Below are positions 5,052-31,772 of a stretch of DNA of 32,812 nucleotides, piece after piece. Below the pieces are notes generated by a model. That model was not told the origin of the DNA, ran no database searches, and saw only the letters and a program-made list of their open reading frames with translations. The stretch is taken from contig JAJYXH010000087.1 in the NCBI GenBank assembly GCA_021791075.1, forward strand, positions 1 through 32,812, in the 5' to 3' direction. Position numbers and translations under genes: made by a program. The stretch comes from Candidatus Micrarchaeota archaeon (lineage in GTDB: Archaea > Micrarchaeota > Micrarchaeia > Micrarchaeales > CABMGC01). Numbering within the stretch: position 1 is the stretch's first letter; the number at the start of each line of letters is the position of its first letter.

Positions 5052-5423
5052 TCATCTGGTTATATTGTCCTCTTCCGACTCCGTGATTCCAAAGCCATTG
5101 CCGTGCACAGATCTGATGCTGACAGGAGCATCGTCATTTCTCTTTATCCTGGAGAAGAGCACAACAATGGCGCTTCCGCCTGCCTGCACCTCTCCTATTC
5201 CCTCCACAACAGGGGTTATCCGGAGTATCGTCTGGAATGCAGAGCCGTGTCCATCTCTCCTCTTCGATTCGAGGCTTGCCTTTTTCTCTGCGTAATCCCT
5301 CTGGTCAAGCCTCTCCTGAAGTTCCGTGGCCCTGTTCGTGTCCTCGATCTCGTTCCCAGGATCAGGACGCAGCAGCATGGCGAGGGGCGACTCCCTGAGC
5401 CTCTCCGCTCGCTGTGCCAGCAT
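5052..5423 (-). CDS. Hypothetical soluble protein (charged N-terminal half, beta-rich C-terminal half)
   Basis: 123-aa ORF preceded by a GGAGGA Shine-Dalgarno-like element 4 nt upstream of the ATG. No family recognised. Confidence 0.45.
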   Translation of the reverse strand: MLAQRAERLRESPLAMLLRPDPGNEIEDTNRATELQERLDQRDYAEKKASLESKRRDGHGSAFQTILRITPVVEGIGEVQAGGSAIVVLFSRIKRNDDAPVSIRSVHGNGFGITESEEDNITR

Positions 5424-5669
5424 CTTCTCCTCCCAATTACCTATCCCGTTTGTGATATTTAAGTTTAGTGATGCAAGGAAGACCTGCAGGCAAGGCTTAA
5501 TAATCAGGAGATGCCAAAGATATGGTTATAGACTTCTTGCAGATGAGGACAGGGATAAGGAGAACTCATGTGACTTGATGCTACCTTCTTGATCTCCTGG
5601 CATGCGTGAAGTAGTACCAGAGAACCAGAATTATTATCACTACTGCCACTACTGCTGCAATCACTGCTC

Positions 5670-6013
5670 CTGCAGAGGATCTGTTTTATCGGTTCTCAGA
5701 GATTGGCCAGACTTAGGGAAATCCTGCTGAATGCCGGGTGCCATAGTCGATATTGTGAAATCCTCCCACGTTTTAAAACGTGGGCTTCCCTCGCCTCTAC
5801 GGCGATTCGGTAAACGCGACCATTCCTCTCGGAGCCTTTCGCATGGGTTATGGTGAACAGAAACGCAACCCATGGGCATCCGCTCATTACGCGTCCGCGC
5901 GACTTCTGTTGAATCTCTATTGGATGTCCGATTTATATGCCTTCTCACGCCCCTAGCCCACCATTGAAATGATGGGTTTGCGTGTCGGATCATTTATCAT
6001 TACAGATCTGCAG
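5670..6013. ncRNA. Candidate structured non-coding element (large ncRNA or MITE-like element), class and strand unresolved
   Basis: It lies in a ~640 bp gene-free gap (5424-6064) in an otherwise tightly packed window, and its GC content is close to that of coding DNA. The terminal arms CTGCAG-AGG-ATCTGT (5670-5684) and ACAGATCTGCAG (6002-6013) are complementary over 12 nt with a 3-nt bulge. Internal hairpins are a perfect 20-nt palindrome CCCACGTTTTAAAACGTGGG (5765-5784), TCGCC/GGCGA (5791-5805), CATGGGTT/AACCCATG (5842-5874) and 5957-5976. The last hairpin has a G.U pair if transcribed from the minus strand and a C.A mismatch on the plus strand. The ORFs overlapping it (5661..5993 and 5696..5887) have implausible W/R-rich composition. 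Confidence 0.35.
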
Positions 6014-6026
6014 CGAACCGTGTGGA

Positions 6027-6034
6027 TTATATAT
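6027..6034 (+). promoter_or_regulatory. TATA box (TTATATAT) for the DUF929 gene
   Basis: An archaeal TATA-like octamer ends 31 nt upstream of ATG 6065. That spacing fits a leaderless or very short-leader mRNA. Confidence 0.45.
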
Positions 6035-6064
6035 CTTCACTGGCAAAGCTATTCTGGTATTGAT

Positions 6065-7174
6065 ATGCCTGTTAGAAAGAATGTTAGGAACCGTCCGGTG
6101 AGGAGCAGAGGATACGCACCTGCCGCAGGGGCAGGAGTCCTTGTTATTGCTGCCCTTGTGCTTGCGGTAGCGGCTCTTGCAGTAGCATCTTATGCGGTGT
6201 ACGCCACGCTCTCGAGCCCTGCGCAGCAACTTGGCCAGCTTACCTCAAACCAGATAAAGAACCTGGTAAACCTCTCTTACGGCCGCTCCGCCACTTCCAT
6301 TGCAAACACATCCGGTGGAAGCAGCTTCGGACACACCACTGCAGGGATAAATCAGCCACTTAATGCCAGCGCTCTTGCTGTGATAAACGACGCTCCAAAC
6401 TCGTACTTCGAGACCGCTGGACTGATGTACCTCAACGGCTCCATACAGAACGAGGTTCTTCCGAACTATGCCCCGGTAAACGCCTTCATGGTCAACAACA
6501 AGCCTTCGGTAGTTTACCTTGGATCGATAACATGCATCTTCTGTGGTGAGAACCGGTGGGCGATGGCGCTTGCGCTCTCGAGGTTCGGAAACTTCTCGCA
6601 GCTCTTCCAGGGATACAGCTCCTACAGCGACTATGACGTCCCGACGCTGTACTGGAACGTCGCGAACTACACGCGGCAGGACACGCTTGCGGTTGCACCG
6701 CACGCGATATCCTTAGGCGCATACTACTCCAGCAGGTACATAAACTTCCTTCCGATAGAGGGCCAGGGCAACATAACTGGTGGCTTCTTCATCCAGTCGC
6801 TGCCGGTCATAGGCGCGGAGGTAAACAACACCGGCAATGCAACATACAAGAGCGTATTCAGCTACCTGCTCGGGCTTCAGGGAAGCAACTCCACGTCTTT
6901 CAAGGGCACGCCTTACACCATATGGGGCAACAGCCTCTTCGGAGGCGCGGATGCCGTGGACTTCGGAAACACGACACCACAGTCGCAGAGCCTGCCCCTC
7001 ACTTACATGACCCACGGGCAGGTTCTCTCGCAGCTCGGAAACCCTAACGACCAGTTCGCATGGACCGAGTACGCTGCGGCTGACATATACATAGCAGGGG
7101 TGTGCAGGTCCATCAACAACACGGCTCCGGTCTGCAACCTGAGCGCTATACAGAGAATTGAGACTCTCAAGTAA
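6065..7174 (+). CDS. Membrane-anchored DUF929-family thioredoxin-like protein, probable glycoprotein
   Basis: The start is set at ATG 6065 (MPVRKNVRNRP...). A basic N-terminus is followed by one TM helix (GVLVIAALVLAVAALAVASYAVYA). The motif GSITCIFCGENRWAMALALSRFGNF matches the CxxC-(A/G)ExRW signature of archaeal DUF929 proteins. The ectodomain carries 13 N-x-S/T sequons and a second Cys pair near the C-terminus (CRSINNTAPVC). Confidence 0.8.
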   Translation: MPVRKNVRNRPVRSRGYAPAAGAGVLVIAALVLAVAALAVASYAVYATLSSPAQQLGQLTSNQIKNLVNLSYGRSATSIANTSGGSSFGHTTAGINQPLNASALAVINDAPNSYFETAGLMYLNGSIQNEVLPNYAPVNAFMVNNKPSVVYLGSITCIFCGENRWAMALALSRFGNFSQLFQGYSSYSDYDVPTLYWNVANYTRQDTLAVAPHAISLGAYYSSRYINFLPIEGQGNITGGFFIQSLPVIGAEVNNTGNATYKSVFSYLLGLQGSNSTSFKGTPYTIWGNSLFGGADAVDFGNTTPQSQSLPLTYMTHGQVLSQLGNPNDQFAWTEYAAADIYIAGVCRSINNTAPVCNLSAIQRIETLK

Positions 7175-7190
7175 ATGTTGTGATGCCTAT

Positions 7191-7718
7191 ATGGAAGCAA
7201 AGCAGTCTATAGGGAGGGGGCACGTGCTCCTCGAGGTCCTTACTTCAGAGATGTACGTAGGCATAGCCACGGCAGGAGCGCTCGCCTATTTCTGGATTAT
7301 TAACTATCTGGTGGCCTCAAGCAACTACGGCATCTTCCTAATCTCCGTGCCCGTGTACATTGTCTACCTCATGGTGGGCACTGCAGGGATACTGCTCGCG
7401 TTGGGCATCTTCTCGATACGAAACGCGCTCCTCGGCGCCACCGCTGCAGCGGAGGAGGGTGTGCTCAGTGCCGCGCTGCCTTCGATAGGAAGCCTTGCGG
7501 TGACGTGCTCGTGCACATACCCGTTTCTTGGCACGGTGCTCCTCTTCTTCGGAGCAAGCTCGCTCGAGGTCTCTGCCGTTATCTCCTACGTTGCTGCTTA
7601 CCAGGCCTGGATACTCGCGGCGATAATAGTGGTGAACCTCCTCCTGATCCACTATTACCTCGGCAGGCTAGCTAAGGCGGAGCGCAGGATTTATTTAGGA
7701 GGAAGGAGGAGGGCATAA
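7191..7718 (+). CDS. Multi-pass membrane protein (4-5 TM) with an intramembrane CxC motif
   Basis: The ORF begins just after the DUF929 stop (7172-7174). The tracked ORF (TTG 7158) would overlap it, but ATG 7191 is the first ATG. It has hydrophobic segments throughout and the motif SLAVTCSCTYPFLG. A diverged paralogous fragment at 31445-31772 conserves the CxC. No family recognised. Confidence 0.65.
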   Translation: MEAKQSIGRGHVLLEVLTSEMYVGIATAGALAYFWIINYLVASSNYGIFLISVPVYIVYLMVGTAGILLALGIFSIRNALLGATAAAEEGVLSAALPSIGSLAVTCSCTYPFLGTVLLFFGASSLEVSAVISYVAAYQAWILAAIIVVNLLLIHYYLGRLAKAERRIYLGGRRRA

Positions 7719-7766
7719 ACCGTCAAGGCCCATGCCGCTTATTAATTTATATTGTGAATTATCTTC

Positions 7767-8294
7767 ATGCCGTTCAGTTTCAGAGGGGACCTCATACTGC
7801 CCGACCATATCAGGAAGAGTTTGGGAAAGGTATTCGGGAAGTTGATACAGACCAGGGACCTGGGGGTGAACATCGAGGAAGGTGACAGGATATTCGCGGT
7901 AGGCGATATCGTAGTCGGCACCCTGCTGAAGGAAGGCTTCACGCCGTCTGTAGCGATATTCGACAACCGGACCGCGAGAGGCAGAATATCCGTATCTGCG
8001 ATAAGGAGGAGATTCAGGAGTCCATTGAAGGCGAGGAACAGGCCGGGAAGCATAAGCAGGGAACTCTGGAATGCCGTGGATACTGCCAGTAAGTCGAGCA
8101 GGCCGGTAGGCATACGCGTTTATGGCGAAGAGGATCTCGCCTCGCTGGCGTGCATTCACTTTGCGCCTATGAACTCGATAGTGGTCTACGGGATACGTGG
8201 GAGGGGAATCGATATAATAAGGGTGCGGCCGGGCATAAAGCGCTTTGCCGAGAGGGTTCTCAGGCAGATGAGGGATGAGTCTGGTGGGAACTAA
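7767..8294 (+). CDS. DUF359-family protein, archaeal GTP-dependent dephospho-CoA kinase type
   Basis: 175 aa. The motifs AVGDIVVGTLLKEGFTPSVAIFDNRTARG and YGEEDLASLACIHFAPMNSIVVYG match the conserved GD-V...P-x-x-(I/V)-x-D-x-(K/R)-T-x-R and EEDL...P...V-YG blocks of DUF359. Confidence 0.75.
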   Translation: MPFSFRGDLILPDHIRKSLGKVFGKLIQTRDLGVNIEEGDRIFAVGDIVVGTLLKEGFTPSVAIFDNRTARGRISVSAIRRRFRSPLKARNRPGSISRELWNAVDTASKSSRPVGIRVYGEEDLASLACIHFAPMNSIVVYGIRGRGIDIIRVRPGIKRFAERVLRQMRDESGGN

Positions 8295-29702: not shown

Positions 29703-29861
29703 TTTATCTAGACCTACAGTTAACCAAGATCGGATAATTATTGGGGGATTTGTGCTTATTAAGCTACTCTTGGCACGGCACCGCACCGGCATTGGCGTGG
29801 CGGCTAGCCTGGGCTAATGAGCTTAAGAATCTTTTATTCCAAACTACTAAGGATTGTGAAT

Positions 29862-31436
29862 ATGCCATCTAAATCCGAAGACGGTAAGACACTGGATTTG
29901 GGAGTGAAGCATGCGGGCCTAGCTTCGTTCGTCAGCCTCGCTAGGCTCATATATATATTGGCCGGAGGGGTCATGCTGATAGTTGTAGCCAGATGGCTGG
30001 GTCCAAGCCAGTATGGAATATACACACTGGCCATAGCAATAACTGGTTTTGGGACTGCTTTTGGGAGCATCAACATAGGTCCTTACTTCAATAAGTATAT
30101 ACCAAAACTCATATCGGAGAAGAGATTTGATCGTATTGGGATATTTATAGGTGACGGGATCGTCTTTCTCCTGATTCTGACAATCTGCATAATGGTCCTT
30201 GGAGATGTCTTCGCCGGGCCGATTGCGCAGTCGGTCTTCGGATCTCAATCCTACACTTTTGTAGTCTACCTCTCCATGCTCGGTATCATAGGCGCGATTA
30301 TTTACCCAATCCTGACAACCATCCTCGTAAGCCTTGGTACGGGAGCGGAGATTGCAGTCTCATCGTCTTCGGCCATGGTTATACAGACGGCCATCAGCAT
30401 CGCCCTTGTTCTCCTAGGGTTCGGGGCTGTTGGTGTGATAGAGGCATACGTTGCAAGCGTCTTTGTTGGTGCTCTCATAACCCTCTACCTGATATATAGG
30501 AATTCCTCAATACGATTCGTGATCAAGGGATTCCGCCAGCGCATCGGCCATATACTTAGGTTCTCCCTGCCCCTGACAAGCAGCGGCTTGATCTTCGGTT
30601 CGATCAGCAATTTCCTTGTCATCTACATGGCACTTCTACTGATACCGACAAGCGCGATAGGACAGTACGGAATCGCCACTAAGGCGAGCACCATGTTCGA
30701 TATTGCGATAGGGGCTATAAGCGTGGTTCTCGTACCAATGTTTGCAACGGCCTTATACAACAGGCATGGCATACGTAAGATATCTAGACTTTATCAGAAC
30801 TCGATCTATTACAGTTTCCTCTTTACCGTTCCCCTCATTGTCTATGCCACCGTTCTATCATATGATATAATCGTAACGGTCTTCACCGCATCCTACAATC
30901 TTGCTGTGATCTATATGCCGATGGTGGTATTCGGCGTCTTTCTCTCCCTTCTCTGGAACAATGCCTTTTTTCTGCTTGTAAGCCTAGGACGAGTGAAGAG
31001 ACTCATGAAGTTTGCTATAATAGGCGGGTTTTCCGAGTTCATCACCGTGCTTATTCTGGGATACCTCTTCGGAATAATAGGGATAATAGTCGGGGGATTT
31101 TACATAGTCAACATAGTCCTGATCTGGCTCTACTTCACAGAACTGAAAAGGTTGCGGATCGTGGTCGACTTCTCTCCTTCGCTGCGTGTTTTGCTTTCCA
31201 ACCTCGTTCTTGGAGCGATCATGATACCTCTCGTCTTCCTGCCGATACGGCCCCTGTACGTACTGTTCATAGGGATGGCGCTGGTCATTCTTGTCTATCC
31301 CGTACTGCTCGTAAAGCTCAAGGCGGTGCGCAGGGATGACATAAAGGTGCTCAACAGGGTGAGTGAGGAGATACCTCTCGGAGCGGTGCTCAGGTCAGTC
31401 ATACGCTACGGGGAACGCTTCTTGGCAAAGGGATAG
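29862..31436 (+). CDS. Wzx-like oligosaccharide/polysaccharide flippase (MOP superfamily)
   Basis: About 524 aa with at least 12 hydrophobic helices. The N-terminal pattern (LASFVSLARLIYILAGGVMLIVVARWLGPSQYGIY) is typical of polysaccharide biosynthesis protein/flippase families. The start is set at ATG 29862. Confidence 0.82.
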   Translation: MPSKSEDGKTLDLGVKHAGLASFVSLARLIYILAGGVMLIVVARWLGPSQYGIYTLAIAITGFGTAFGSINIGPYFNKYIPKLISEKRFDRIGIFIGDGIVFLLILTICIMVLGDVFAGPIAQSVFGSQSYTFVVYLSMLGIIGAIIYPILTTILVSLGTGAEIAVSSSSAMVIQTAISIALVLLGFGAVGVIEAYVASVFVGALITLYLIYRNSSIRFVIKGFRQRIGHILRFSLPLTSSGLIFGSISNFLVIYMALLLIPTSAIGQYGIATKASTMFDIAIGAISVVLVPMFATALYNRHGIRKISRLYQNSIYYSFLFTVPLIVYATVLSYDIIVTVFTASYNLAVIYMPMVVFGVFLSLLWNNAFFLLVSLGRVKRLMKFAIIGGFSEFITVLILGYLFGIIGIIVGGFYIVNIVLIWLYFTELKRLRIVVDFSPSLRVLLSNLVLGAIMIPLVFLPIRPLYVLFIGMALVILVYPVLLVKLKAVRRDDIKVLNRVSEEIPLGAVLRSVIRYGERFLAKG

Positions 31437-31444
31437 GTGATCCG

Positions 31445-31772
31445 ATGAAACTCTTTGATAACCTGCTGAACCGAAGGAGCACGGGTTACATAACGGGGGA
31501 GGGCCGCCCTCAGCACAATATTGCCTTCGTCAGGCAGTCTCGTGGCAACGTGCGCCTGCAGCTACTCGCTGCTTGGCCCCATGCTGATATACTTTGGCGT
31601 AAGCTCGCTTGCAGTATCAGGCATCATGTCGCTCGTATCTGCATACCAGCTCTGGATCCTTATTGCGATAATCTTTCTGAACCTCCTTTCCGTATATTAC
31701 TTCTCAGGCAGGATTGCCTCCGCCGAGCGCAGGACGCAGCGCAGGGAAGCCAGGGCCTCAAGGAAAAGTTAG
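31445..31772 (+). pseudogene. Frameshifted C-terminal fragment paralogous to the CxC membrane protein at 7191..7718
   Basis: Two overlapping frames (31445.. and 31494..31772) together align with the last ~105 aa of the 7191 gene. By eye, about 40 of ~70 residues are identical from LPS.GSL..TC.C.Y..LG to AERR. The frame switches near the C-run at 31503-31510, and an in-frame TAA sits at 31491-31493. The N-terminal TM helices of the full-length paralog are absent. Confidence 0.55.

Follow-up and report, generated by a model that had tools for sequence, protein, structure and literature searches.

Archaeal extracytoplasmic disulfide chemistry is poorly mapped, and to our knowledge VKOR is its only known membrane component. 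In the described DsbA–DsbB and DsbA-like/VKOR systems, an exported or anchored thioredoxin-fold protein with a CxxC motif stands beside a membrane protein with four transmembrane (TM) helices, both termini inside (N-in/C-in) and redox-type cysteines near its outer face; CcdA and DsbD are electron conduits that reach extracytoplasmic thioredoxin-fold clients through one intramembrane cysteine pair. A further disulfide donor, MauE, is a four-TM protein whose active site is a CGC between TM3 and TM4, and it replaces DsbB in Escherichia coli (bioRxiv 10.64898/2026.03.05.709764). Paired membrane cysteines also occur in the mercury proteins MerT, MerC and MerF, which receive their cargo from an exported CxxC protein, MerP. 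Here we describe a gene pair that invites comparison with all of these. It lies in contig JAJYXH010000087.1 of a Candidatus Micrarchaeota archaeon, the whole of which (32.8 kb; contig C39 of a 0.98-Mb, 84%-complete genome) is hereafter the window. The first gene encodes DUF929L, our name for the window's DUF929-family protein, which belongs to a long, diverged subfamily; the second encodes a four-TM membrane protein, hereafter the CxC protein. We propose that the two may form a dedicated two-component thiol–disulfide relay on the outer side of the cell membrane, a reading that, from sequence comparison, we give an even chance.

The pair and its motifs are laid out as follows:

6065–7174, forward strand: DUF929L gene, encoding a 369-amino-acid (aa) type-II membrane-anchored, thioredoxin-fold-like ectoprotein with a PF06053 match.
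6125–6211, forward strand: signal-anchor TM helix (aa 21–49), a helix at 21–49 in the AlphaFold2 (AF2) model, preceded by the basic cytoplasmic head MPVRKNVRNRPVRSRGY.
6533–6544, forward strand: predicted CxxC active-site motif C157-I-F-C160, at a helix N-terminus after a beta-strand; both Cys in 120/120 homologues.
6905–6913, forward strand: G281-T282-P283, candidate cis-Pro loop, in invariant columns just before AF2 strand 284–287.
7103–7135, forward strand: second Cys pair C347...C357 (CRSINNTAPVC), in C-terminal helices, kept in 120/120 homologues.
7191–7718, forward strand: CxC membrane protein gene, encoding 175 aa with four TM helices, N-in/C-in; unannotated family.
7506–7514, forward strand: C106-S-C108, at a helix break between AF2 helices 87–104 and 109–119, in the third hydrophobic segment.

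DUF929L scores 37.7 bits against the Pfam DUF929 model (PF06053; gathering cut-off 24.6 bits), with only model positions 10–91 of 205, the N-terminal 40%, aligned. Because this match is partial and a canonical DUF929 copy in the same genome scores 109 bits, the window protein is placed in a diverged long subfamily. A word-indexed search gave 580 homologues, from Micrarchaeia for the most part, and in an alignment of the best 120 of them Cys 157, 160, 347 and 357 are all invariant. The consensus around the CxxC is C-[IVLM]-[FYW]-C-G-E-N-R-W, which reads CIFCGENRW in the window protein. The AF2 model (predicted local distance difference test, pLDDT, 83.9; predicted template-modelling score, pTM, 0.76) shows a low-confidence linker after the anchor and then a well-predicted domain, in which strand 146–154 leads into the CxxC and helix 158–171. 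With the T-P before a further strand, this resembles, in the model, the active-site arrangement of a thioredoxin fold, and T282-P283 would be its cis-Pro. C347 and C357 probably form a structural disulfide; the equivalent C-terminal pair (Cx10C) is CEVTGNQPQSVC in the canonical paralogue, whose CxxC helix begins CPYCAAERW, and the signature of DUF929, a CxxC, an xxxRW helix and a C-terminal Cys pair, is present in DUF929L. All 13 N-x-S/T sequons lie downstream of the anchor, which fits an outward-facing domain. The initial annotation, read from the sequence, had called this a type-II-anchored DUF929 protein with a CIFC motif, and the PF06053 match, the TM segment at aa 21–49 and the motif at aa 157–160 agree with it.

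Searches of the PDB with the DUF929L sequence gave nothing significant, nor did the predicted fold by Foldseek, whose top matches were ScsC (E = 1.2) and DsbA1 (E = 4.8). According to a published profile analysis (PMC3091736), DUF929 belongs to the thioredoxin clan. DUF929L is a putative DsbA-like thiol–disulfide oxidoreductase, and the pairing of canonical DUF929 with VKOR described below adds to this assignment. We know of no function assigned to DUF929.

Sixteen nucleotides (nt) separate the DUF929L stop from the start of the CxC gene. The frame of the latter is open from a TTG at 7158; since the homologue P0001 and all relatives begin at ATG 7191 (MEAKQ...), the gene is taken as 7191–7718. 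The initial annotation had described a protein of four to five TM helices directly after DUF929L; the adjacency stands, while the helix count is corrected to four and the start to ATG 7191. In an alignment of 112 full-length members, lysine and arginine residues average 3.7 at the N-terminus, 2.1 in loop 2 and 4.2 at the C-terminus, as opposed to 0.17 and 0.21 in loops 1 and 3, and by the positive-inside rule this gives four TM helices with both termini inside. In the AF2 model (pLDDT 83.4, pTM 0.73), the break in the third hydrophobic segment coincides with the CxC, and a short amphipathic helix, 124–136, lies between that segment and TM4. An outward-facing CxC had been put forward as a check; the model allows either a mid-membrane position or the outer end of TM3.

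The window protein has exactly two cysteines, C106 and C108. At a mean column identity of approximately 32%, they are retained in 111/112 and 110/112 members, a conservation that exceeds chance and bears out the earlier statement that the CxC supplies the only conserved cysteines of the protein. The motif is CGC in 71 members, CSC in 15 and CAC in 15; besides the two Cys, only Y33 in TM1 and N149 in TM4 are near-invariant. About half of the members carry a single Cys in the tail, which the window protein does not.

Pfam and NCBIfam hold no family for the CxC protein, and a scan of 90 members returned no recurrent one. Against the PDB there was nothing significant by sequence; by fold, the best Foldseek match had E = 1.8, and neither DsbB nor VKOR was matched. 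An exhaustive hidden Markov model (HMM) search yielded 122 representative clusters; 84 reach E ≤ 1e-10, nearly all are 150–200 aa long, and the databases name them ‘hypothetical’ or ‘multipass membrane protein’ throughout. Two further hits were set aside, the repetitive, 492-aa P0164 as a spurious match and P0241 (1157 aa, 10 short matched stretches) as an apparently spurious one. Of 301 genomes sampled across the phylum, 129 belong to the window's order (two families, f1 and f2); the gene is present in approximately 114 of these 129, and elsewhere there are weak matches only. By these searches, the CxC membrane component is a new, unannotated family.

The two genes travel together. Of the 29 best CxC-gene loci in other genomes, 24, drawn from both families of the order, have DUF929L as the next gene upstream in the same orientation. 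From the DUF929L stop to the CxC start the median is 1 nt, and all distances but one outlier fall between −4 and +21; at this spacing the genes are predicted to be translationally coupled. In the commonest context among 23 loci surveyed with 5-kb flanks, a TatD gene on the opposite strand is followed by DUF929L, the CxC gene, a V4R-like gene and SecY; in the window's genus the flanks differ and end in DUF359, and a third context, at least, occurs elsewhere. With at least three flanking contexts, the pair has therefore moved as a unit. The initial annotation had named a lack of such adjacency in other genomes, and a CxC not conserved in orthologues, as refuting conditions; the adjacency holds in different contexts and the CxC is nearly invariant, and neither condition refutes the idea.

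Two open frames of 509 and 542 aa that had the look of natural fusions resolved, on splitting, into two abutting or overlapping open reading frames (ORFs). In several genomes (L011, L014 and L034), the CxC ATG directly follows the DUF929L stop in the same frame, so read-through of that single stop codon would yield a fusion protein. In most genomes of the order (L072–L091, for example L072:7038–8138), a 340–390-aa V4R-like protein (a weak match, 28.5 bits against a cut-off of 31) follows the pair and is itself followed by secY, with a divergent TatD-family gene upstream. The V4R-like gene directly adjoins that of the CxC protein and may be transcribed together with it. At L091 (G016:C1:777000–789000), which matches Ca. 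Mancarchaeum acidiphilum, a Micrarchaeon kept in co-culture, the pair lies directly upstream of secY.

Adjacency of this kind could also arise without any chemistry between the partners. The CxC protein could be a small transporter, an assembly factor or a scaffold for DUF929L, with its CxC a structural or metal-stabilised feature and the adjacency a product of co-expression and synteny. The adjacency data all come from one order of small, largely syntenic genomes, each gene is found without the other in some of them, and the protein has no recognisable cofactor site and no structural match to DsbB or VKOR. Against this, the only near-invariant residues of the family are the two Cys, Y33 and N149, and the pair relocates as a unit with its translational coupling, and we consider an arrangement without direct chemistry improbable.

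Relatives of the membrane protein bear further on this point. The weak matches from beyond the order, together with the second copies within it, fall into two types, A and B, which are homologous to the CxC family over their full length (hhalign probability 98.7% for type A, at E = 2e-16 across 166 columns, and 97.7% for type B). At the site of the CxC they carry CC (ACCSP, LCCTP) or CxxC, and they have in addition a cytoplasmic C-terminal CxxC or CC. Immediately upstream of type A, in 6 of 11 loci, is an anchored DsbA-like protein (Thioredoxin_4, 117 bits; DSBA, 81 bits), and anchored thioredoxin and PDO-like proteins often adjoin; immediately downstream of type B, in 9 of 9 loci, is a ResA/TlpA-like protein with a WCxxC (Redoxin/AhpC-TSA above cut-off). 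Across Micrarchaeia, Cys-pair membrane proteins adjoin anchored thioredoxin-fold ectoproteins. Three branches of the membrane superfamily beside three different anchored CxxC families of the thioredoxin fold make thiol chemistry the economical reading, and without it they would be difficult to account for. The window's CxC protein would be a lineage-specific offshoot of this wider family, in which the Cys pair (CC, CxxC or CxC) sits in the third hydrophobic helix.

What the two proteins pass on need not be a disulfide. In 8 of the 9 type B loci, an ArsR regulator and/or a genuine MerA lies further on, in the order CC protein, thioredoxin-fold ectoprotein, ArsR, MerA; this MerA, with 523.9 bits against TIGR02053 (cut-off 454), has the diagnostic CC at its C-terminus (...SCCTV). 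The window's own genome has such a mer locus at the edge of contig C102 (3–3064), with MerA on the forward strand. The opposite strand encodes a regulator of the ArsR type, an anchored ResA/TlpA-like protein of the thioredoxin fold and a homologue of the CC type that is cut short where the contig ends. In that locus the thioredoxin-fold protein fills the slot that MerP has in bacterial mer operons. CopA-type ATPases lie near type A homologues at four loci. A profile of types A and B matches a MerT profile (5 sequences, taken from plasmid records) with 76–85% probability in hhalign over approximately 58 columns, at MerT residues of approximately 20–84, and the alignment takes in the helix with the CC, the TM helix after it and the cytoplasmic Cys. 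Single type A relatives give weak co-linear matches to the MerT model (E = 0.00029, 0.0094 and 0.012), all far below its cut-off of 130 bits, and the window CxC protein gives none. Types A and B thus appear remotely MerT-like, and the mer and CopA context together with the profile match suggests that the ancestral job of the fold may have been metal hand-off.

Since the membrane family is homologous to CC and CxxC proteins, some of which sit in mer operons with MerA, a soft-metal relay is a serious rival to disulfide exchange. The DUF929L CxxC would bind Hg2+ or Cu+ (possibly also Cd2+ or Zn2+) in the manner of MerP and the CxC protein would carry the ion across the membrane, for detoxification or for metal supply in a metal-rich acid-mine habitat. 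Near-identical DNA to the window does occur in mine-drainage and sediment metagenomes, all of them DNA metagenomes, and a Cys pair at a helix break with intramembrane N149 and Y33 recalls the metal sites of P1B ATPases, which are built of CPC and Asn–Tyr. The CxC gene, however, is near-universal in the order, usually by secY and never with merA or copA in the loci examined, which does not fit an accessory resistance trait; within the 5-kb flanks of the 23 surveyed loci there was no merA, merP or merR. Hand-off by MerT-type proteins makes use of a cytoplasmic Cys pair, which the CxC subfamily has lost. DUF929L retains all elements of an oxidoreductase signature (a CxxC that begins a helix and an invariant T-P loop), its canonical paralogue being paired with VKOR. 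A direct comparison of the CxC family with the MerT profile is not significant (2.8%), and the link from CxC to MerT is transitive, through types A and B, and prone to bias from TM composition. On balance we regard metal transport by the pair as less probable than disulfide exchange.

The preferred reading, a thiol–disulfide relay, draws on what else the order has for this chemistry. On contig C15 of the same genome, a canonical DUF929 gene (CPYC, 109 bits; 6982–7803, reverse strand) is followed after 10 nt by a VKOR homologue (6570–6971, reverse strand; 81 bits) with a loop Cys pair and a CIYC. Canonical DUF929 and VKOR are adjacent in 6 of 6 sampled f1 genomes and in 0 of 14 f2 genomes, in which VKOR lies elsewhere. 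This arrangement suggests that DUF929 is the DsbA-like partner of archaeal VKOR, for which we found no published statement, and the DsbA-like reading of DUF929 as a whole gains support from it. The VKOR-linked protein is paralogous to DUF929L (E = 3e-16 against the DUF929L profile). VKOR is present in 31 of 35 genomes, with or without the CxC gene, so the CxC system would be additional to VKOR, and its role as a VKOR replacement is ruled out. CcdA/DsbD_TM exceeds its cut-off in 4 of 10 genomes elsewhere in the class and in none of 20 from the order, where that role is left vacant. Two cytoplasmic thioredoxins are encoded in the window's genome.

In the proposed relay, DUF929L would be a membrane-tethered, glycosylated thioredoxin-fold thiol–disulfide oxidoreductase, diverged from the VKOR-linked DsbA-like DUF929, and a disulfide would pass between its C-I-F-C and the near-invariant CxC of the four-TM protein translated with it, by which DUF929L would be recycled. 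The two Cys motifs would react with each other, and the cargo would be a disulfide or electrons as opposed to a metal, for which the standing of the CxC family as a core gene next to secY also counts. As to direction, the partner is slightly more probably a disulfide donor, similar to MauE, DsbB or VKOR, than a reducing conduit. The donor role is favoured by the MauE- or Erv2-type CGC of the subfamily and by the loss of the cytoplasmic Cys pair of the relatives; a CcdA-like reducing role comes close behind, because VKOR already covers oxidation and the order is without CcdA/DsbD, and the ResA-type partners of the relatives count for it as well.

Several observations weigh against the relay. 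A second oxidase beside VKOR is not obviously needed. The CxC protein has a single Cys pair with no second pair to shuttle to, no recognisable quinone or cofactor site and, in the window, no cytoplasmic Cys. The adjacency is in large part inherited synteny within one order, and it has exceptions: both genes are present and apart in 4 genomes, DUF929L is missing from one draft genome that has the CxC gene, and approximately 10 of the 129 genomes, in three genera, have DUF929L without any CxC gene. Among these is the complete, 1.2-Mb genome G239 of the same order, which carries DUF929L and two canonical DUF929 genes and has no CxC gene, VKOR or CcdA above cut-off. DUF929L survives without the CxC gene, and the partner is therefore not obligatory. 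To these points are added the CopA and mer neighbours of types A and B, their MerT profile match and the ancestral metal hand-off to which these may point. The original idea of an analogous but non-homologous relay keeps the conserved adjacency, the CxC and the DUF929–VKOR pair on its side; it is qualified by the mer-linked relatives, which show that the membrane family is not an orphan, by a partner that is not obligatory and by the weak evidence that the partial copy described next provides, and it is partly supported.

The window carries a second, partial copy of the membrane protein:

31521–31772, forward strand: hairpin-only paralogue of 83 aa with a TTG start, comprising TM3–TM4 plus the tail, of doubtful function; its CxC region reads ATCACSYSLLG.

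The initial annotation had reported this copy from 31445 and had taken its CxC as a sign of selection. It is a real paralogue, 58% identical to the window CxC protein over the C-terminal 71 aa (E = 3e-28) with C-A-C kept, and it aligns to family HMM positions 83–173 only; the start given as 31445 is that of an ORF read in a different frame. Its DNA has no similarity to the CxC gene, its protein is at most 58% identical to any family member, and among the sampled relatives it is seen in this genome only. We therefore read it, from these comparisons, as an old, genome-specific, truncated copy of uncertain function. The deposited gene call, the 63-aa P0158, starts past the CxC, and the retained motif is weak evidence for selection compared with conservation across the family. 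A functional mini-protein is possible, since several hairpin-only members of 74–95 aa recur in metagenomes (P0211, P0221, P0231, P0239 and P0245). Such members recall the two-helix MerF; the window copy itself matches the MerT model at E = 0.015 (15.6 bits, cut-off 130) and directly follows a Wzx-like flippase gene (29817–31436). At the other end of the pair, the 640-nt stretch upstream of DUF929L (5423–6064) has no credible ORF. Relatives L007 and L088 have a gene for a 185-aa membrane protein at that site, and tblastn found no remnant of it in the window (E > 0.9), so the gap is not taken as a decayed copy.

Among known systems, MauE–MauD (PF07291) is the closest functional precedent, and by analogy a non-homologous one. 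Both membrane proteins are small, with four TM helices and a CxC as the sole essential cysteines (consensus CGC in both families), which lies on the outer side between the third and fourth helices, and both are encoded beside a thioredoxin-fold CxxC protein, with which MauE works; the resemblance is architectural only. None of 90 CxC-family members matches PF07291 at E ≤ 1, and in 25 Micrarchaeota genomes the MauE model has no match at a CxC locus and scores at most 12 bits at other loci, which rules out membership at the sequence level. The conserved Lys and Glu of MauE, its proposed quinone ligands, have no obvious counterpart in the CxC family, in which Y33 of TM1 and N149 of TM4 are conserved instead, and the MauE CxC lies in a disordered loop whereas that of the window protein lies at a helix break within a 29-residue hydrophobic stretch.

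By descent, the closest relatives of the CxC protein are probably MerT, MerC and MerF, judged from the intermediate types. As in these proteins, a Cys pair (CC or CxxC there, CxC here) followed by Pro lies in a TM helix with a second TM helix after it, the gene for an exported CxxC protein, the donor of cargo to the membrane protein, adjoins, and type B relatives occupy the merT slot of real mer operons. Unlike MerT, the window family begins with two additional TM helices and has CxC in place of CC and no cytoplasmic Cys pair, and it is a core gene as opposed to an accessory one, with no merA, merP or merR nearby. MerP has a ferredoxin-like HMA fold; the partner in the window has a predicted thioredoxin fold.

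The closest paralogous system, on sequence, is DUF929–VKOR. It shares with the pair, and with DsbA–DsbB, an exported or anchored thioredoxin-fold CxxC protein beside a four-TM, N-in/C-in protein with redox-type Cys near its outer face. VKOR and DsbB have two Cys pairs, a loop pair and a CxxC, as opposed to the one of the CxC protein, and homology to VKOR (PF07884) is rejected (hhalign, 1.2% against 7 Micrarchaeal VKORs; no Pfam match). CcdA and DsbD (ScsB), with ResA, TlpA, DsbC and ScsC as clients, are alike in having one intramembrane Cys pair and a neighbouring extracytoplasmic thioredoxin-fold client, and the likeness extends to the relatives of the CxC protein, which adjoin ResA/TlpA-like and DsbG/DsbA-like proteins and have a cytoplasmic CxxC tail. 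They differ in sequence (PF02683; no Pfam match), in having six TM helices as opposed to four, and in carrying one Cys on each of two symmetry-related helices, whereas in the window protein both are on one helix and none faces the cytoplasm.

Taken further, and with somewhat less confidence than an even chance would warrant, the CxC family and its CC/CxxC relatives may constitute an unrecognised class of membrane thiol relay built on a MerT-like hairpin, a class that in DPANN archaea would act as redox partner to anchored ectoproteins of the thioredoxin fold. If so, it would be a further independent solution beside the disulfide donors DsbB, VKOR and MauE and the electron conduits CcdA/DsbD, and an evolutionary bridge from mercury and copper thiol hand-off to disulfide exchange. 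The mer-operon link suggests that one small membrane fold serves both soft-metal hand-off and disulfide exchange, a double use of interest to those who study Dsb systems and to those who study metal resistance, and the pair is a testable candidate for a missing arm of archaeal disulfide chemistry. It parallels the very recent finding that the CxC of MauE can replace DsbB. Set beside all of these, the kind of system, a thioredoxin-fold ectoprotein with a Cys-bearing membrane partner, is already known, and the membrane component is new.

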